From Escherichia phage vB_Eco_NR1, in sequence record LR990704: a stretch of 64,000 nucleotides of DNA; one strand, 5' to 3'. The position numbers were made by a program, and so were the translations under genes. Position 1 is the first letter of the stretch. Every line of letters begins with the position of its first letter. Below the pieces are notes generated by a model. That model saw only the letters and a program-made list of their open reading frames with translations. It was not told the origin of the DNA and ran no database searches. Shown here piece after piece: positions 3,172 through 58,909 of this stretch.

Positions 3172-4759
<1,588 letters not shown>

Positions 4760-4786
4760 AATAAAATGGGCCTTGCGGCCCACTCC

Positions 4787-5965
4787 TTAAAAGTATTTTT
4801 TAAAACTCATCATAACTTTATCATCAACATCATTATCAATCTGTGCAACAAGGTAAGATGACAGTTCTACTTCTTGTGGCGCGGATTGAACATTATCAGA
4901 ATTAAGATATTCACGAATCCAAGGATATGGATGTTTAACCGGAGCATCGGTAATCGGGCATGGAAGACCACACTGTTTCATACGAGATACAGTTAAGTAA
5001 TCAATAAAGCTCCACATGCTATTTGTATTTAATCCAGGAACATCGCCATCTTTAAATAAATGAACTGCCCAATCTTTTTCTTGGCGGTTAACTTCCATGA
5101 AAATATCAACTGCTTCTTGTTCACACTCTTGAGCAATTTTAACCCATTGATCGCCATCAGTACCAGATTGAAGTTGACGAATAATATATTGGGTGCCTTT
5201 AAGGTGAAGCTGTTCATCGCGTGCAATGAACTTCATAATCTTGGCATTACCTTCCATGATTTCCATGTTCTTATGGAAGTTAAAGGTACATGCGAAAGAT
5301 ACATAAAAACGAATAGCTTCCAATGCGTTAATTACATGCAAACAGAGGTAAAGAGATTTCATTAGCTCACGCTTCCAATATGTCTCATGCTCAATAGCAT
5401 CTTCAATAACGTCTTCGTCTGCATTAATTTCTTTTTGGTATTCGATATCAGCTTTAGCGTTTTCCCAATAACGAGTTTTAATCAGAACATCATCATAATA
5501 ACGTCCAATGGATTCAGCACGTTTCATAATAGCTTCATCTAATACAATTTCATCAAATACCTTCGATGGATCAGTATAAAGATTTCGCATGATATGTGTA
5601 TATGAACGGCTGTGAATAGTTTCACTAAAAGTCCATGTAGCAACCCATGTATCAAGGCTTGGGTCTGAAATTAATGACATAAGTACAGCAGATGGCGCAC
5701 GACCCTGAATGCTATCCAAAAGTGATTGATACTTCAGGTTATTAGTAAAAATATTTTGCTGATACTGAGGAAGCTTGTTAAATTGTGCAGCATCCATCAT
5801 TAAGTTTACTTCTTCAGGACGCCAGAAAAATGACAATTGCTTTTCGGTTAAATCTTCAAAAACTTTATGGCGTTGAATATCATAACGCGCAATACCAAGA
5901 CCTGAACCGAAGAACATAGGTTCTTTTAAAACATCAACTGGATTTGTATTAAAAACTGTAGACAT
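4787..5965 (-). CDS. nrdB: ribonucleotide reductase class Ia small (beta) subunit
   Basis: 392 aa continuous ORF; di-iron R2 fold motifs; no intron or I-TevIII-like ORF interrupts it. Confidence 0.95.
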   Translation of the reverse strand: MSTVFNTNPVDVLKEPMFFGSGLGIARYDIQRHKVFEDLTEKQLSFFWRPEEVNLMMDAAQFNKLPQYQQNIFTNNLKYQSLLDSIQGRAPSAVLMSLISDPSLDTWVATWTFSETIHSRSYTHIMRNLYTDPSKVFDEIVLDEAIMKRAESIGRYYDDVLIKTRYWENAKADIEYQKEINADEDVIEDAIEHETYWKRELMKSLYLCLHVINALEAIRFYVSFACTFNFHKNMEIMEGNAKIMKFIARDEQLHLKGTQYIIRQLQSGTDGDQWVKIAQECEQEAVDIFMEVNRQEKDWAVHLFKDGDVPGLNTNSMWSFIDYLTVSRMKQCGLPCPITDAPVKHPYPWIREYLNSDNVQSAPQEVELSSYLVAQIDNDVDDKVMMSFKKYF

Positions 5966-5999
5966 ATTATTCTCGCTTATTATGGTTTAAATTATTTAA

Positions 6000-6791
6000 T
6001 CACATATTGTGTATAAGCACTTCGGTCTGAAATGATGCACCCTTCTTTTGCTTCCTATACATGGTTTCAAAATATTCAATTTTGAAATTATTAGAAAGGG
6101 CCCAATCTTTTAAAATATAATTATTAATATCGTCTGATAGATTATTAGTGATAATAAATTTAGACTTCGATTGTTTAATTTTGTCTAATAATTCTAATTC
6201 ATCCTTTTCTTCCCAGCCTGAATATTTAAATTTAGTAGAAAGATACGGCGGGTCAATGAATAAATTTTTGTTTTCAAAATCCAAATCTCTGAATGATTTA
6301 TTACTAAATGTAAATCGGTGCTGTCTATTTTTAAATTCAGAAAATTTATCCTGCTGAGACTTATTAAAAGAAGTTCTGGAATACTTGGCTCTATTGGCGA
6401 AAGCCGCGTTATAATTCCCATTACTAGAAAATCGGATTAACGAACTGAATGAAAATAAATGTAGAACATAAAGATATAATCCGTTTTTGGTTTTATCGTA
6501 TTCTTTTGACAGATTATAAAAAGGTGCTGAATCTTTGTCATTCAAATTAAAATCTTCAATAATTTTAACTATATCATTAATTGAAGATGATTTCATCTTT
6601 TTATACATGTCTATAAGAGGAGTATTAATATCATTACATATAACATCTCTCTGACAATTCATAGAAAATCCAAGACCACCACAAAAAGCATCCAAAACAG
6701 GCTTATCGTCAAAGCGGTTTGAAAATTGTCTAATAAATGGCATATACTTATGTTTTGCACCTGGATATGTTATGGCAGGTAGGTCTTTCAT
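6000..6791 (-). CDS. DNA N6-adenine methyltransferase, Dam family (divergent)
   Basis: 263 aa; motif I DAFCGGLGF and catalytic motif IV FIDPPYL in alpha-class order; N-terminal YPGAK and segment YVLHLFSFSSLIRFS resemble T4 Dam; very AT-rich coding sequence. Confidence 0.8.
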   Translation of the reverse strand: MKDLPAITYPGAKHKYMPFIRQFSNRFDDKPVLDAFCGGLGFSMNCQRDVICNDINTPLIDMYKKMKSSSINDIVKIIEDFNLNDKDSAPFYNLSKEYDKTKNGLYLYVLHLFSFSSLIRFSSNGNYNAAFANRAKYSRTSFNKSQQDKFSEFKNRQHRFTFSNKSFRDLDFENKNLFIDPPYLSTKFKYSGWEEKDELELLDKIKQSKSKFIITNNLSDDINNYILKDWALSNNFKIEYFETMYRKQKKGASFQTEVLIHNM

Positions 6792-6834
6792 ATTATTTCT
6801 CGTTGTTGGTGACTCGTCCGTGAGTCAAATTATA

Positions 6835-9099
6835 TCATAATTTACAGGATGAACAATCTTCAGCTTTTGGAGTTTCTATTTCATAATCATCAGTACCAGA
6901 ACCATCACGGGTATTATGATAATAGAAATTTTTTCCGCCAAAATACCAAAAGTACAAAAGGTCATCAATCATTACAGACATTGGAACCTTTCCTTTTGGA
7001 AAAATCTGCGGGTCATAATATGTATTTGCTGAAGCTGATTGACATACCCATTTAAGCATAATAGCTACCTGCGTAAGATAAGGTTTATTACCTTTCTTAG
7101 CTAATTTCCATGTATAATCATAGAGGTCTATGTTATGCTCAATATTGGGCACGACTTGATTAAAGGAGCCCTCTTTTGATTCTTTAACAGAGACTGGTCC
7201 ACGTGGAGGCTCGATACCGTTTGTACTGTTAGAAACTTGGGAAGATGACTCACATGGCATAAGTGCTGATAATGTGCTATTACGGATGCCAAAGAGCTTA
7301 AGGTCTTCCCGCAGCGACGACCAGTCACAAACGTATTTTGGAGCTGCGATTTGGTCAATCTTTTTATTGTACCAGTCGATAGGTAATTCGCCTCGAGACC
7401 AACGAGTGTCTGAATAATATTCGCAAGGTCCTTTTTCTTTGGCGAGCTTAATGGATGCTTTAATGAGTCCATACTGTAATCTCTCAAATAGTTCATGTGT
7501 TAAATCGTTAGCATCTTCATAAGAAGCAAAGTTACTTGCCAGCCAAGCTGCATAGTTAGTAACACCTACACCGAGGTTACGACGCTTTTTAGCTTTTTCT
7601 GCTTCAGGAACTGGATATCCTTGGTAATCCAAAAGATTATCAAGAGCACGAACTTGGACTTCTGCCAATTCATTAATTTTATCTTGGTCTTGCCAGTCAA
7701 AATTATCCAGTACGAATGCAGATAACGTACACAATCCAATTTCAGCATCAGGACTATTCACATCATTTGTTGGAATAGCAATTTCACAACACAAGTTACT
7801 CTGACGAATAGGTGCCTTTTCACGAATAAACGGAGTATAGTTATTCGTATTATCAATGAACTGTACATAAATCCTTGCTGTTCCTGAACGTTCAGTCATG
7901 AGCAATTCAAATAGTTCACGGGCTTTAATACGCTTTTTACGAATATTAGGGTCTTTTTCTGCTGCTTCGTATAATTCACGGAAACGGTCTTGGTCTTTAA
8001 AATAAGAATAATAAAGCTCTCCACCCATTTCATGTGGACTGAACAAAGTAATGTAATCGTTCTTTCCAAATCGTTCCATCATCAAATCATTCAGCTGAAC
8101 GCCATAATCCATATGACGAATGCGGTTTTCTTCTACGCCTTTGTTATTTTTCAAAACGAGAAGATTTTCAACTTCCAAATGCCAAATAGGATAATAAGCA
8201 GTAGCAGCGCCGCCACGAATTCCACCCTGTGAACATGATTTAACTGCAGTCTGAAAATGTTTCCAAAAAGGAATAACACCAGTATGACGTACTTCACCCA
8301 TGCCAATCTTAGAACCTTCAGCACGAATCATACCAACATTAATACCAATTCCAGCGCGTTTAGAGATATATTCAACAATTGAAGCGGAAGCCTTATTGAT
8401 AGACTTCAATGAATCACCTGCCTCAATAACAACACATGAACTAAACTGTCGAGTTGGAGTACGGCAACCAGCCATAATAGGAGTTGGCAATGAAATCTGT
8501 CGAGTAGATACTGCTTCATAAAAACGGATAACATGTTTTAATCTATCAACAGGTTCATCTTGATGCAGTGCCATTCCAATAGTCATAAATGCAAACTGCG
8601 GAGTTTCATAAATTTGACCAGTGGTTTTATCTTTAACTAGATATTTTTCTTTTAATTGCATCGCACCGGAATAAGTAAATTCCATATCCCGCTCGTGCTT
8701 AATTTTTGATTCTAAAAATGTAATTTCTTCTGCTGAATATTTTGACAATAATTCAGGGTCATATTTACCTGCATTTACACAGTAAGAAATATGGTCAATA
8801 AATGAACGCGGTTCATACTGCCCGTAAACATGCTTACGAAGAGCAAACATTAAACAGCGTGCAGCTACATATTGATAATCAGGCTCTTCAACCGAAATAG
8901 AATTCGCAGCAGCCTTAATTACAATAGTTTGAATGTCATCAGTGGTCATTCCATCACGGAGATATGATTTAATATTTTCATATAATTCATAAGGATCTAC
9001 AGATGTTCCTTCAGCTGCCCAAGATAAAACTTTAATAATTTTTTGTGGGTCAAAGCTCTGAGAAACACCACTACTTTTGATAACATTAATTAATTGCAT
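6835..9099 (-). CDS. nrdA: ribonucleotide reductase class Ia large (alpha) subunit
   Basis: 754 aa (T4 NrdA 754 aa); ATP-cone N-terminus, catalytic NxCxE (SNLCCEI) and C-terminal CSSCKL tail. Confidence 0.97.
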   Translation of the reverse strand: MQLINVIKSSGVSQSFDPQKIIKVLSWAAEGTSVDPYELYENIKSYLRDGMTTDDIQTIVIKAAANSISVEEPDYQYVAARCLMFALRKHVYGQYEPRSFIDHISYCVNAGKYDPELLSKYSAEEITFLESKIKHERDMEFTYSGAMQLKEKYLVKDKTTGQIYETPQFAFMTIGMALHQDEPVDRLKHVIRFYEAVSTRQISLPTPIMAGCRTPTRQFSSCVVIEAGDSLKSINKASASIVEYISKRAGIGINVGMIRAEGSKIGMGEVRHTGVIPFWKHFQTAVKSCSQGGIRGGAATAYYPIWHLEVENLLVLKNNKGVEENRIRHMDYGVQLNDLMMERFGKNDYITLFSPHEMGGELYYSYFKDQDRFRELYEAAEKDPNIRKKRIKARELFELLMTERSGTARIYVQFIDNTNNYTPFIREKAPIRQSNLCCEIAIPTNDVNSPDAEIGLCTLSAFVLDNFDWQDQDKINELAEVQVRALDNLLDYQGYPVPEAEKAKKRRNLGVGVTNYAAWLASNFASYEDANDLTHELFERLQYGLIKASIKLAKEKGPCEYYSDTRWSRGELPIDWYNKKIDQIAAPKYVCDWSSLREDLKLFGIRNSTLSALMPCESSSQVSNSTNGIEPPRGPVSVKESKEGSFNQVVPNIEHNIDLYDYTWKLAKKGNKPYLTQVAIMLKWVCQSASANTYYDPQIFPKGKVPMSVMIDDLLYFWYFGGKNFYYHNTRDGSGTDDYEIETPKAEDCSSCKL

Positions 9100-9416
9100 A
9101 AGTCCTCAACTTGAAAATCGTCTTTAAACAATCGGTTAACTATATGAGCTATTATATCACCATGACACGGCTTTGGTTTACATGTGCATCCTAGCCTCAT
9201 TCCACGTAAAGGCTCTAAATGTGCTTTAGTTATTTCTCCGGATTTAATTCGACGTATAAAATCTTTTTTGAATAATTCAATGGCAGCCTCCCGGCTGCCA
9301 GCATCTTTACCGACGTAATTTCCCCAAAATGTACCACGGTGAATATTAACATCAAAGTCGGATTTGTATTTATTCACTACCCGGCATAGACGGCCCACGC
9401 TGGAATAATTCGTCAT
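9090..9416 (-). CDS. DUF4326-like protein (108 aa); start uncertain
   Basis: motifs RVVN..KSDFDV..IHRG, WGN, and [13 protein letters not shown] resemble the DUF4326 family; ATG at 9416 lies 47 nt inside upstream ORF, GTG alternatives exist. Confidence 0.6.
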
Positions 9417-9633
9417 ATTGTTTTTCCGTTAAAACAGTAATATCGTAGTAACAGTCAGAAGAAGTTTTAACTGTGGAAATTTTATTATCAAAATACTCAC
9501 GAGTCATTTTATGAGTATAATATTTTTTACCATAAATGATAATAGGCTGTTCTGGTCCTGGAACTTCTAACTCGCTTGGGTTAGGAAGTGTAAAAAGAAC
9601 AACGCCAGAAGTATCTTTAAATCGTAAAATCAT
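9370..9633 (-). CDS. hypothetical protein (87 aa), translationally coupled to td
   Basis: start ATG overlaps td stop as ATGA (aaa atg gca atATGAttttacg). Confidence 0.6.
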
Positions 9634-10490
9634 ATTGCCATTTTCCCTTTAATTGCTGGATGCGATTCATAATTTTCAAGGATAAAATCTTTCGGTTTCA
9701 TGTATTCAGTTAACCAGTAAAGCTGTGTTTCGGTGTCACAATTTCCAAACTCTATAGGCCAATCAATTTTAAGTTCACATAGTTCTTTAGGCTCACGACG
9801 TAAAATTTCTTTACATTGCTCAGTATGATTCATATAGATGTGAGTATTACCACCAGAAAATATCAAATCTCCTGGGATAAGATTACACATCTTAGCCACA
9901 ATATGCGTCAAGGCAGCGTACGAGGCAATGTTGAATGGCAATCCCAAGAAAACATCTACACTTCTTTGGTACCATTGTAAATCAAGATAACCATTACGCA
10001 CATTAAACTGATAGAACATATGACAGGGCGGTAATGCCATTTGATTGATTTCAGCTGGATTCCATGCTGAAACGATTTGACGTCGATCAGTTGGTAATTT
10101 TTTAATACGATCAATAGTTTCAACTAATTGATCCACACCACCGAAATCACGCCATTGTTTACCGTATATAGGACCAAGTTCACCACTATGATATCCTAGG
10201 TCTTTAGCCTGGTTTTCATAGTTATCGTCCCAAATAGTTTTGCCTTGAATAAGACTACCATGAGTGCGAAGACGTAAATCATTAACATTGGTAGAACCGG
10301 AAATAAACCATAAAAGCTCAGCAATGCATGCATTCCAGGCGAGCTTCTTAGTTGTTACTGCAGGAAAACCTTTACTTAAATCCCAGCGTAATTTAGTACC
10401 GAACAAAGCAATTGTTCCTGTGCCCGTTCGGTCATCGGTTTCATAGCCATTTTCAAAAATGTCTTTAATTAAATCTTGGTATTGTTTCAT
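9630..10490 (-). CDS. td: thymidylate synthase (intron-free)
   Basis: 286 aa continuous ORF; ThyA motifs (catalytic PPCH in [11 protein letters not shown]); matches recalled T4 Td exon-joined length. Confidence 0.97.
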
Positions 10491-51197: not shown

Positions 51198-51716
51198 TTA
51201 ATAGCCTCGGTCTTGACGAGCGAAATTTTCAGCATTTTTCAGATAATAAAGTTTAAATATTTCTTCAGCTGACATTCCAAGAGCAATAAATTTATTCATG
51301 AAAAAGTGAAATTGGTCAATCAGTTCAAATTTAATTTCAAGCTGATCTTCAGGAGATAAGTCTTGAATTTTCTTGGATTGCATTTCAGAATAACGTTTCT
51401 TCCAAGGTTTCCATACGGCAGAAGCTTCTTTTTCACCATTACTCATACCACCAAGAGAAGTATATAGTTCGCGAGTTTCATCTGCGATATAATCGTCTTG
51501 GTTTCGCAACCAAGCAAGAACTTCTCCTGCAGTTTCAAGTGAATCAGGATGACGATTTGTTTCTGGTTTATCATTAGCCAAACGAATCTGTAAATGCCGC
51601 TGCATATCAAGCATAACCTGCAGTGGGTCAATATTGTGCATAATATTCTCAGCATATGCACGATTTGCTTTATCAACACCTTCGATCAAATGAGCACATT
51701 CATTAAAGTAAGCCAT
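51198..51716 (-). CDS. 56: dCTP/dCDP pyrophosphatase gp56 (MazG-like)
   Basis: ORF track 51198..51809 trimmed to MAYFNECAHLIEG (172 aa; T4 gp56 171 aa); upstream part overlaps a MotA-box promoter. Confidence 0.85.
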   Translation of the reverse strand: MAYFNECAHLIEGVDKANRAYAENIMHNIDPLQVMLDMQRHLQIRLANDKPETNRHPDSLETAGEVLAWLRNQDDYIADETRELYTSLGGMSNGEKEASAVWKPWKKRYSEMQSKKIQDLSPEDQLEIKFELIDQFHFFMNKFIALGMSAEEIFKLYYLKNAENFARQDRGY

Positions 51717-51775
51717 TATTTTTCCTTTCAATTCATGGGTTAGTAGATTAATTATACAATAAATATATAAAGCAA
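51717..51775 (-). promoter_or_regulatory. MotA-dependent middle promoter upstream of gene 56
   Basis: minus strand tTGCTTtA, 11 nt, TATAAT. Confidence 0.5.
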
Positions 51776-51787
51776 TAAGGAGGACAT

Positions 51788-51988
51788 ATGGTACAAAAAT
51801 TAATGGCACTTGTTAATGCCATAAAAGGTAATAAAAAACGTATAGCTTTTACTATTTCTGCTATGGTAGGAATTTTACTCTGGAACTTTATTCTATCACC
51901 TGTTGCAATTGCGCATGGTATTAATATTCCAGTAGTTACTCTTGATACATTTGTAGATTTAGCATTTGCTTTAGTTGGGTTGATTTAA
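51788..51988 (+). CDS. putative small membrane protein (66 aa) on opposite strand between 56 and 61
   Basis: AAGGAGG SD 4 nt before ATG; two predicted TM segments; ORF fits the 56-61 intergenic gap exactly (4-nt overlap with gene 61 end). Confidence 0.4.
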   Translation: MVQKLMALVNAIKGNKKRIAFTISAMVGILLWNFILSPVAIAHGINIPVVTLDTFVDLAFALVGLI

Positions 51989-53013
51989 ATCTTAGCATAT
52001 TTAGATAGCCGCATTTTAGCCATCAACCCCTGGGCAATATTATTTTTCATATATTCCATAATTTGTTCAGGGGTTGCACCTTCCTTTCTAATCATATCAT
52101 TGACATCTTTTGATTTCCAGGGAGATTTATCCCAAAACATAACCCTTTCTCCTGCATCAACTAATTTAGTCATTCGTTTGATAGTGTCAGGGTGACGAGG
52201 TTCATTATCTAAAACCCACACTCGTCTATCTTTAAATGGAACAACTTCTAGGTCTAATTGACCACCTGTAATAGCTATACCATTTTCAATAAAAAGTGAA
52301 TCTATAGGTCCTTCTAGAACATATACATCACCATCTTTAACTCGTTCAACACCGTAAATTTTTGTTGCCTCAGGATAAGCTTTAATGGTGATATATTTTT
52401 GAGGAGCATCTTTCTTTAATGCACGTCCTTGAAAAGACTCAGCTTTTCCATTAGCATTATAAATTGGAATAACAAGACGAGGCTCAGAAATTTCCTTTTT
52501 GTATGTTCCCGGTGCTATGCTATTAACTAATTTAGGCCATTCGGTTGTAAACCAAAGATATTTCCATTTATCCTTTGGAATACAACGAGCTTTTACATAT
52601 TTTATAATTGGATGGTCTTCCGCCAGTTTATCTAATCTAACACATGACGGAAGAGATTTAATTATTTTCTTCTCAGGTTGCTTAGGAAGTTCTTTAGGTT
52701 TTTCTACTGGACGACTTTTACCTTTTTCTTTTCTTATTTCAAAGATATACTCACGATATAAATCGGGTTCAAACTCCTTTAAATATATTCCGATTGGTGC
52801 ATGATAGTTACAGTTATAACAATGAATATTTCCTTCATTATTATCACCATAATACCATCCACGAGCTTTATTCTGGTCGGTTTTTGAATCTCCACAAACA
52901 GGACATCTAAACCGCAATTTAAAAGTTGAACTATTATTTACTTGTGTGAATTTAGGTAAATGAGCCAATGCACGGTATGCAAACTCATTATCAATCCAAG
53001 GTATTGATGACAT
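51985..53013 (-). CDS. 61: DNA primase gp61
   Basis: 342 aa as in T4 gp61; N-terminal zinc ribbon CPVCGD...CYNCNYH and Toprim region. Confidence 0.95.
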   Translation of the reverse strand: MSSIPWIDNEFAYRALAHLPKFTQVNNSSTFKLRFRCPVCGDSKTDQNKARGWYYGDNNEGNIHCYNCNYHAPIGIYLKEFEPDLYREYIFEIRKEKGKSRPVEKPKELPKQPEKKIIKSLPSCVRLDKLAEDHPIIKYVKARCIPKDKWKYLWFTTEWPKLVNSIAPGTYKKEISEPRLVIPIYNANGKAESFQGRALKKDAPQKYITIKAYPEATKIYGVERVKDGDVYVLEGPIDSLFIENGIAITGGQLDLEVVPFKDRRVWVLDNEPRHPDTIKRMTKLVDAGERVMFWDKSPWKSKDVNDMIRKEGATPEQIMEYMKNNIAQGLMAKMRLSKYAKI

Positions 53014-58060: not shown

Positions 58061-58909
58061 TTAATCAACTGCTATTGGATGAATAGCATTAAACTTATGA
58101 AATGCTTCTGATTTTTCTTTGCGCGAAACACACATGCGAAGAACCTTTAATGGCTCGTCTTCTTCACCCAACGATTTTCGTTTTTCAATATTAGAAGTTT
58201 TCCAACGAGCTTGCTCTGGAAACTCTCTATTGATTTGCTCAAGCGCTCTATTATGTTTAGAATTACTGCGAATTGAACTACACCCACCAGGAGCTTGTGC
58301 TTTTCCAGATACAACCAGATATTTGAACAAGGCCAAATGCGGATAACCTTGATTAATTAAATTGAGAAATGCATACATATCTTCGCACAAATCAATTTTT
58401 CCATACCCAATTTGTTCTGTTGTAAGTTTTCCAAGGTCATACCATGTATTCGTGAATCCATATGAATTTTCACGATAATTACCCCAAGATGAAGTAATTT
58501 TAAAAATTGGTAGACGAGCATGGCCATGATAATACCCGCAATCCATGGCATCTTCGACGTATTGAATCAATTCATAGAACTGTTCACGGGTTAATTGATT
58601 GACTTTATCTACACAACGACGGTCATCTCTTTTTCGCATTGAACTCATACGAATAGTAGTATCATCGTCAATCATCCAGATTCGTTGACCTGCATACATA
58701 TCAGTAATTGCTTTACGAGTACCAGCAATTCCATTTACATCGTCAGGAATAGTTATAATTTTAGCTCTAGACCCATAGGCATCATAATAAGCTTTTTCTT
58801 CATGTTCACGCACTACAATATGGGGTTCATAATTAGTCGGAAACATATCAAGGGCAGAAACTGCCCCGACACGCTGATAACTTGGAATTACGAATTGAAT
58901 CATTTCCAC
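58061..58909 (-). CDS. putative HMC-DNA glucosyltransferase, GT-A fold (T2/T6 beta-alpha-gt-like)
   Basis: 282 aa; N-terminal VIPSYQR and DDD (DxD) motif typical of GT-A glycosyltransferases; sits where T4 encodes GT-B beta-gt. Confidence 0.6.
   Translation of the reverse strand: MEMIQFVIPSYQRVGAVSALDMFPTNYEPHIVVREHEEKAYYDAYGSRAKIITIPDDVNGIAGTRKAITDMYAGQRIWMIDDDTTIRMSSMRKRDDRRCVDKVNQLTREQFYELIQYVEDAMDCGYYHGHARLPIFKITSSWGNYRENSYGFTNTWYDLGKLTTEQIGYGKIDLCEDMYAFLNLINQGYPHLALFKYLVVSGKAQAPGGCSSIRSNSKHNRALEQINREFPEQARWKTSNIEKRKSLGEEDEPLKVLRMCVSRKEKSEAFHKFNAIHPIAVD

Follow-up and report, generated by a model that had tools for sequence, protein, structure and literature searches.

Why should a T4-like phage carry a gene for an adenine methyltransferase between nrdB and nrdA, and which site would the enzyme methylate? 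The question is raised by Escherichia phage vB_Eco_NR1, a T4-like phage (Tequatrovirus), of which 64,000 nt of one strand (LR990704) were analysed; this whole stretch is called the window below. An original prediction had described a 263-amino-acid open reading frame (ORF) of the window as a divergent Dam-family enzyme that fills the nrdA-nrdB interval. Its position and length, the order of its motifs and its short intergenic flanks (34 nt toward nrdB, 5966-5999, and 43 nt toward nrdA, 6792-6834) were all confirmed in the sequence. The encoded protein, referred to as the methylase, starts with MKDLPAITYPGAK; the coordinates of the ORF and of the other features are collected in Table 1. The evidence described here makes it probable that the methylase is an active orphan N6-adenine DNA methyltransferase of the Dam family, carried on a cassette in the nrd gap and having GATC or a GATC-like sequence as its predicted target.

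The nrd-linked ORF encodes a member of the Dam family

The protein matched the Pfam D12-class profile PF02086 at profile positions 1-251 of 253 with an expectation value (E) of 5.5e-24 and a score of 85.7 bits (cut-off 22). It also matched PHROG 56, 'DNA methyltransferase' (E 9e-36), and its best PADLOC match was the orphan methyltransferase model (E 8.9e-40). Among proteins of solved structure the best match was T4 Dam (M.EcoT4Dam; PDB 1YFJ, 1YFL and 1Q0S), with residues 4-252 aligned on residues 2-251 of 1yfj (E 4.4e-38), and E. coli Dam and DpnM (M1.DpnII) came well behind (E only 1e-4 to 3e-6). Identity to T4 Dam was approximately 34%, the two proteins being of 263 and 259 amino acids, respectively. 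The earlier description as an alpha-class adenine methyltransferase of the Dam family with only a loose resemblance to T4 Dam was thus borne out, and the profile search that had been proposed as a check returned clear methyltransferase homology.

The conserved motifs stand in the order typical of the alpha group, which is also that of T4 Dam. Motif X (Y9-G11-K13) is followed by motif I (D34-x-F36-x-G38-G39, in DAFCGGLGF at residues 34-42), and motif IV (D180-P-P-Y183) lies in FIDPPYL at residues 178-184. The DNA-recognition hairpin, approximately residues 115-134, falls between the FxGG (36-39) and DPPY motifs, as the alpha class requires. In alignments the N-terminal Y-G-K, the FxGG motif of the S-adenosylmethionine (AdoMet) site and the catalytic DPPY were invariant throughout the clade of closely related proteins described below and in the more distant relatives.

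An AlphaFold2 model of the methylase had a mean predicted local distance difference test score (pLDDT) of 86.8 and a predicted template modelling score (pTM) of 0.87. Its weakest part was an inserted loop (block 131-140, pLDDT 64). The top 24 PDB matches of the model were T4 Dam, E. coli Dam and DpnM, with template modelling (TM) scores of 0.70-0.89. The T4 Dam-DNA complexes scored 0.82-0.89, while E. coli Dam and DpnM, which share the Pfam family and the fold, scored 0.70-0.81 with 16-18% identity in the structural alignment. By sequence, motif order and predicted fold the protein is a member of the D12/alpha-class N6-adenine DNA methyltransferases.

The ORF was unbroken (263-264 codons) in all seven independently recovered alleles that were compared. 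The pairwise ratio of nonsynonymous to synonymous substitution rates (dN/dS) between alleles was 0.07-0.17 at dS values of up to about 2. Ratios as low as these show strong purifying selection, and by this measure the methylase appears to be functional. A decaying or nonfunctional remnant, or a methyltransferase fold put to some use other than DNA adenine methylation, would be in line with the AT-richness and sporadic occurrence of the gene, and with its score of 94.1 for the NCBIfam Dam subfamily TIGR00571, for which 114.85 is required (NF008152, the equivalog model of E. coli Dam, gave 33.5 where 441 is required). Such a reading is very improbable in view of the intact frame in seven alleles, the low dN/dS, the invariant DPPY, FxGG and Y-G-K motifs, and a confident model that covers the whole Dam fold including the DNA-binding hairpin.

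We also considered that the gene might be the modification half of a restriction-modification system, or part of a selfish element with a nuclease of its own, as PADLOC models of type II methyltransferases match it as well and the site is a hotspot for homing endonuclease genes (PMC2790892). No nuclease ORF adjoins it, however: nrdA and nrdB are its immediate neighbours upstream and downstream, and this two-neighbour context is identical in all carriers. Profile searches against Pfam, NCBIfam and PHROG found the D12 methyltransferase domain only, with no nuclease domain, and the plus-strand ORFs within the methylase ORF are short (40-69 amino acids) and without support. With no nuclease present, the gene does not belong to a restriction-modification system and is not a homing endonuclease gene, and we regard this alternative as extremely improbable.

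The methylase is not a relocated T4 dam

In T4, dam (780 nt) lies between genes 61 and 56 (T4 annotation). In the window, tblastn searches with T4 gp61, gp56 and Dam located both neighbours but only 175 nt between them, and apart from the methylase in the nrd gap no further T4 Dam match was found anywhere in the 64 kb. The gp61 of the window is 99.4% identical to that of T4 and its gp56 only 69%, a contrast suggesting that a recombination boundary lies where dam is missing. The dam-less junction is common and is shared by most relatives: 481 phage records matched it over at least 80% of its length, among them several phages with an empty nrd site (relatives of teqhad, and CM8), which lack the cassette too. 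T4-type dam DNA was matched in just 184 phage records; approximately one quarter of the Tequatrovirus records matched carry it, and about three quarters gave no match.

An ordinary T-even dam that had been moved to a new place would account for the empty 61-56 slot and for T4 Dam being the best characterised relative. The neighbouring genes are, however, 97-99% identical to those of relatives, against the 34% to T4 Dam. The methylase clade is also closer to a methylase of an Alcaligenes phage (40.6% identity and a shared insertion) than to T4 Dam, and the dam-less junction is shared by phages without the cassette. Moreover, phage vB_Eco_BGP has both genes, the canonical dam (L011 33963-34742) and the nrd-linked methylase (L004 2001-2792). 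A translocated ortholog is therefore very improbable. Judged by position and by identity alike, the methylase is not the T4 dam ortholog, in agreement with the earlier view that it is not an ordinary dam at a conserved place.

In the vB_Eco_BGP record the nrd-linked methylase is annotated as a shortened 744-nt 'hypothetical protein', although all 263 codons form an unbroken frame. The closest carriers, T4_ev240, 236Ecol005PP, ECO07P2 and EP02SG, had a single Dam-like place per genome (tblastn). Mutual exclusion of the nrd-linked methylase and the canonical dam was considered as evidence for a common function and rejected, because the numbers are too small and vB_Eco_BGP has both.

A small isolated clade next to nrdA

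The insert was present in only 7 of the 718 phage records that matched both the nrdB and the nrdA flank. In the typical relative the gap is 51 nt long and empty, which upholds the claim that the gene was inserted between nrdB and nrdA. A protein search found homologs of at least 76% identity in 8 of 50,697 phage records; the next phage relatives were the Alcaligenes phage protein (40.6%) and then T4-type Dam (about 35%). In a collection of 5.8 billion proteins the close homologs formed four 90%-identity clusters with 36 sequences of 76-99% identity, and the other matches returned had at most 33%. When 1.84 billion representatives of 50%-identity clusters were searched exhaustively, only the methylase's own cluster came up at E<=1e-30, and the next match had E 1.7e-28 and 34% identity.

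Nine other loci could be placed, six in GenBank phages and three in metagenomic contigs, and in all of them the methylase gene directly follows nrdA. In eight it stands between nrdA and nrdB; these are in Tequatrovirus, in Gelderlandvirus CF-SP2, in the unclassified T4-like phages fDHCT2 and EP02SG, and in the three metagenomic contigs. In the ninth, Marfavirus PhiKpNIH-6, the methylase comes straight after nrdA and the record ends inside the gene, so that the nrdB side is not visible. The methylases thus form a small isolated clade that is distinct from T4 Dam and adjoins nrdA in every occurrence placed in T4-like phages.

The nearest protein outside the clade is the Dam-like methylase of Alcaligenes phage Afa-NA1 (PV550095), which shares the insertion after the recognition hairpin and the Ala at the position of T4 Dam Pro126. 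It differs in having Pro as its Phe127 equivalent, and in its origin: Afa-NA1 is a 78-kb phage that is not T4-like, and its gene lies beside topoisomerase genes, not nrd genes. GenBank labels the nrd-linked gene 'DNA adenine methylase' in several records and 'hypothetical protein' in others. No discussion of an nrd-linked methylase was found in the literature, including a search on the carrier phages. It is a rare and undescribed, but ordinary, kind of phage accessory gene.

The nrdA-nrdB gap had been named as an insertion hotspot where T4 carries mobE and small nrdA.x ORFs. Homing endonuclease insertions are indeed documented there (PMC2790892; T4 annotation). The gap of T4 contains mobE together with nrdB.1 (T4 annotation), whereas nrdA.1 and nrdA.2 are found beyond nrdA, outside the gap, so that this one detail of the earlier description was off. 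In the window, too, the homologs of these two genes lie upstream of nrdA. The methylase gene is an alternative occupant of this known hotspot. Like mobE and other homing genes of the T-even nrd region, it is a single-gene insert found in only some phages; unlike them it encodes a methyltransferase instead of a nuclease and so cannot drive its own spread.

Extent and exchange of the cassette

The ends of the inserted segment were defined by aligning the junctions of 9-10 filled sites with those of one empty site. Next to nrdA, the sequence TGA-TATAAT-T-TGACTCacggacGAGTCA-CCAAC is common to both kinds of site. Past CCAAC, carriers continue with AACGAGAAATAAT-ATG, the start of the methylase, and nrdB follows at the empty site. 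Next to nrdB, a 34-nt spacer is conserved in every carrier and ends in GCGAGAATAAT-ATG-TCT, in place of GCGGAAAATTT-ATG-AGC at the empty site. The first two codons of nrdB are thus ATG TCT in carriers (window 5960-5965) and ATG AGC in the empty-site phage (L003 1961-1966). TCT and AGC specify the same amino acid. Because this serine codon differs at all three positions, the boundary of the cassette must reach into nrdB.

So delimited, the cassette consists of its own ribosome-binding region AACGAGAAATAAT, the methylase ORF, the 34-nt spacer with a ribosome-binding region for nrdB GCGAGAATAAT, and nrdB codons 1 and 2. It replaces approximately 27 nt of the empty site, TATTAACTAAGCGGAAAATTT ATG AGC. 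A similar ribosome-binding stretch, CGAGAA(A)TAATATG, precedes both the methylase and nrdB; no other bounding repeats were found at the cassette edges.

Identities of the gene and of its flanks disagree across carriers, and we therefore regard the segment as a mobile cassette of about 0.85 kb. EP02SG and the window are 97.9% identical in the methylase gene but only 79.6% in nrdA and 85.4% in nrdB; in 100-nt bins, identities of 95-100% were confined to approximately 5987-6786. Conversely, vB_Eco_BGP and the window are 97.0% identical in nrdA and 80.0% in the methylase. In nrdB the window is closest to an empty-site phage, teqhad (97.5% identity), and shares only about 90% with two carriers, T4_ev240 and ECO07P2. 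Within nrdB, the bin 5387-5486 was the most diverged, with 39-59% identity to T4_ev240, ECO07P2, vB_Eco_BGP, CF-SP2 and fDHCT2, and the bin 5287-5386 was 77-81% identical to the same five carriers, whereas both bins were 93-99% identical to teqhad and EP02SG. Positions 5287-5486 are a mosaic patch.

Mosaic identity of this kind is the pattern expected of homologous recombination through the conserved nrd flanks, and the comparison indicates that the cassette has been swapped between phages in this way. Since the alleles differ by dS values of 1-2 and all occupy the same slot, the clade is old. The suggestion of a recent acquisition was therefore right as to horizontal exchange of the cassette; the age of the clade and its single slot do not fit a recent arrival.

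Expression signals

A TATAAT sequence at 6829-6834, followed by the hairpin TGACTC-acggac-GAGTCA, lies just downstream of the nrdA stop codon and is conserved in all 11 aligned loci. Being present in filled and empty sites alike, this region belongs to the phage backbone and not to the cassette. Phages without mobE are reported to have the middle promoter of nrdB either in the extreme end of nrdA or between the two genes, whereas that of T4 is inside the 3' end of mobE (Wilson and Edgell, PMC2790892). By its position, the methylase would lie behind the backbone promoter. No terminator-like site was detected in 5700-7200, a difference from mobE. As the gene is on the same strand as the nrd genes, has no terminator and stands directly behind the promoter/hairpin region, expression together with the nrd genes is most likely.

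The 3' end of the methylase ORF may, in addition, apparently supply nrdB with a replacement expression signal, as the 3' end of mobE does (PMC2790892). The sequence GAAGTGCTTAT was invariant in 9 of 9 alleles, including four synonymous positions, and contains the TGCTT core of a MotA box; most alleles have TAAAAT at a distance of 15 nt behind this core. With low confidence, we propose this segment as a candidate MotA-type middle promoter for nrdB.

Recognition residues and target site

The first base pair of GATC is read by K9 of E. coli Dam and the fourth by R124; Y119 intercalates, and L122 and P134 contact the third base pair (PMC4417163; PMC10073500). Equivalents of the contact residues were assigned from alignments with T4 Dam and E. 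coli Dam. Residues K11, F111, S112, M114, R116 and R130 of T4 Dam (K9, Y119, N120, L122, R124 and Y138 of E. coli Dam) correspond to K13, F115, S116, L118, R120 and R134 of the methylase. T4 Dam P126 (E. coli Dam P134) corresponds to A130. Because all contacts but one are kept, GATC or a near-GATC sequence is the likeliest target. The similarity to E. coli Dam and DpnM extends to the equivalents of K9, Y119 (as Phe), L122 and R124 and ends at that of P134, which is replaced; the methylase also differs from these two enzymes in being phage-borne and in having no tie to mismatch repair or to a restriction enzyme.

A number of observations weigh against an ordinary GATC enzyme, beginning with the one changed contact and the subthreshold TIGR00571 score mentioned above. 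The Asn118 equivalent of T4 Dam is Ser in the methylase, while it is Asn in 134 of the 148 nearest family representatives, and the Gly128 equivalent is Ala, in place of the Gly found in 140 of the 148. Six residues are inserted beside the recognition hairpin, after the Arg130 equivalent. The spacer following the hairpin is 8 residues long, compared to 2 or 4 residues in 135 of 150 aligned sequences (the 148 relatives, T4 Dam and the query). In the branch formed by vB_Eco_BGP, CF-SP2 and fDHCT2, the Arg that reads the fourth base pair (R116/R124) is replaced by Lys, a residue found there in just 3 of the 148 relatives. Enzymes with sites other than GATC also exist within the D12 class. Given the changed residues and the insertion, the target site may differ from GATC, as the original prediction had allowed, and the protein can be placed in the GATC-specific Dam subfamily only tentatively.

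The scarcity of the site in the phage DNA counts in the same direction. GATC was the most depleted tetranucleotide in the window (65 observed, 214 expected from trinucleotide frequencies, ratio 0.30), so that a GATC methylase would find few targets. The ratio was 0.34 in vB_Eco_BGP (positions 1-50000 analysed) and 0.24 in a metagenomic relative. The depletion was also considered as a clue to the identity of the target, and dropped, since it is lineage-wide and present also in a phage with the canonical dam. As to expression, the window allele has TTAAAT as its candidate -10 element, an imperfect match, and does not contain the pattern TGCTT-N14-16-TANNNT; both promoter assignments draw on resemblance between sequences.

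The equivalent of Pro126 is Ala in the window, EP02SG and P0004, and Ser in vB_Eco_BGP, CF-SP2, fDHCT2, P0002 and P0003. The dam-h mutation of T4, attributed to work of Miner, Schlagman and Hattman in 1989, is reportedly P126S and is said to relax specificity, with Ala at position 126 acting alike. It is conceivable, and we hold it as a tentative minority view, that the methylase has a relaxed or a different site and not strict GATC, either as a natural counterpart of dam-h or as a new specificity, and gives a protection that the canonical Dam cannot give. The Ala or Ser found across the clade would suit this view, all the more so as P134 of E. coli Dam contacts the third base pair together with L122 (PMC4417163; PMC10073500). 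The 8-residue spacer and the rare Arg-to-Lys change at the fourth-base-pair residue of one branch point the same way, and the retention of the canonical dam in vB_Eco_BGP hints at non-redundant roles.

Ala and Ser at this position are, however, common in the wider family: 45 of the 148 nearest representatives have one or the other there (28 Ser and 17 Ala), against 77 with Pro. For this reason Ala/Ser at the Pro126 position was also rejected as a hallmark of the clade. Further, the remaining base-contacting residues are all retained in the branch to which the window belongs. The lack of a second Dam homolog in the window and in the four closest carriers (tblastn) fits simple replacement of the canonical enzyme, although this association is not statistically significant. 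A more elaborate version, in which the methylase is a natural Dam variant of relaxed or shifted specificity, the two branches recognize different sites and the alleles are swapped as plug-in cassettes to change the nucleases escaped, seems unlikely. If true, it would explain why vB_Eco_BGP keeps the nrd-linked methylase beside the canonical dam. Should a target other than GATC be established, the clade would provide a natural set of recognition-hairpin variants with which to study how the specificity of Dam enzymes evolves.

Proposed role of the methylase

An orphan Dam-family enzyme with a GATC or GATC-like target thus remains the probable explanation, and the following course of events is proposed. 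The gene would encode an orphan enzyme without a partner nuclease, flanked by nrdA and nrdB only, and would most likely be expressed alongside nrdA and nrdB, both before DNA replication and while it is under way. The enzyme would place N6-methyladenine (m6A) at GATC or GATC-like sites in the phage's own hydroxymethylcytosine DNA, substituting in the window phage for the missing canonical dam. The phage would likely benefit by escaping host nucleases that m6A blocks, as is usual for phage orphan methylases. The likely cost, exposure to m6A-dependent nucleases, would explain the patchy distribution. The self-contained cassette supplies nrdB with a replacement ribosome-binding site and possibly a promoter, and is swapped between phages by homologous recombination in the nrd flanks, a region already prone to breaks through homing endonucleases.

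T4 Dam, too, is an orphan methylase, and its phage is likewise of the T-even type with hydroxymethylcytosine in its DNA. In addition to the differences in identity, location and hairpin residues described above (Pro126 to Ala, Asn118 to Ser, Gly128 to Ala and the insertion after Arg130), the methylase differs in belonging to a clade of its own, which can occur together with T4-type dam in a single genome.

A homolog of the beta-glucosyl-HMC-alpha-glucosyltransferase is encoded at 58061-58909 of the window, on the minus strand (PHROG 842, E 2.4e-89). The DNA of the window phage, and hence the substrate of the methylase, is probably hydroxymethylcytosine DNA doubly glucosylated as in T2 and T6.

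Methylation as a shield of nrdB from nicking by MobE was considered and dropped: the GATC sites of nrdB are at 5149 and 5569, and the nicking site is at about 5824, a position obtained by codon arithmetic on the conserved Trp that is placed at the nicking site by PMC2790892.

T4 Dam is a textbook enzyme, yet T4-type dam was matched in no more than about one in four T4 relatives, and a few have a distant nrd-gap methylase that is exchanged across several genera. Nearly identical phages are predicted to differ in their m6A marks and possibly, as a consequence, in their sensitivity to restriction and to m6A-dependent defences. Such differences would be relevant to phage therapy and to studies of phage-host interaction. 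The cassette also adds a non-nuclease cargo to a locus so far known for homing endonucleases.

Genomic context of the locus

The methylase gene is part of a minus-strand series of genes that, read from the low-coordinate end, runs from rnlA to frd (Table 1).

Table 1. Features of the nrd region and of the canonical dam slot in the window
Feature	Position	Strand	Remarks
rnlA	3172-4332	-	
denA	4349-4783	-	
nrdB	4787-5965	-	
cassette	5960-6804	-	about 845 nt; from junction alignments
methylase ORF	6000-6791	-	D12-class methyltransferase, 263 amino acids
candidate MotA-type middle promoter for nrdB	6000-6023	-	GAAGTGCTTAT; in 3' end of methylase ORF; low confidence
TATAAT and hairpin	6810-6834	-	just downstream of nrdA stop
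nrdA	6835-9099	-	
nrdA.1 homolog	9090-9416	-	DUF4326, PHROG 464
nrdA.2 homolog	9370-9633	-	
td	9630-10490	-	
frd		-	beyond td; last gene of the series
gene 56 (dCTPase)	51198-51809		tblastn
empty canonical dam slot	51810-51984	-	175 nt; tblastn of T4 gp61, gp56 and Dam
gene 61 (primase)	51985-53013		tblastn

The methylase ORF had been called strikingly AT-rich compared with the flanking nrd genes. Its GC content is 29.2%, against 35.9% in nrdB, 37.3% in nrdA and 35.2% in the window as a whole, and the difference is therefore real. When 43 ORFs of at least 150 amino acids were ranked (one overlapping ORF being omitted), it was only the fourth lowest, so that 'strikingly' goes too far: the gene is AT-rich, yet no outlier.

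In one metagenomic carrier, an opposite-strand gene resembling GIY-YIG homing endonuclease genes (L012 929-1657) takes the place of nrdA.1 and nrdA.2 between td and nrdA. The case is one more indication that mobile genes come and go frequently in the nrd neighbourhood.

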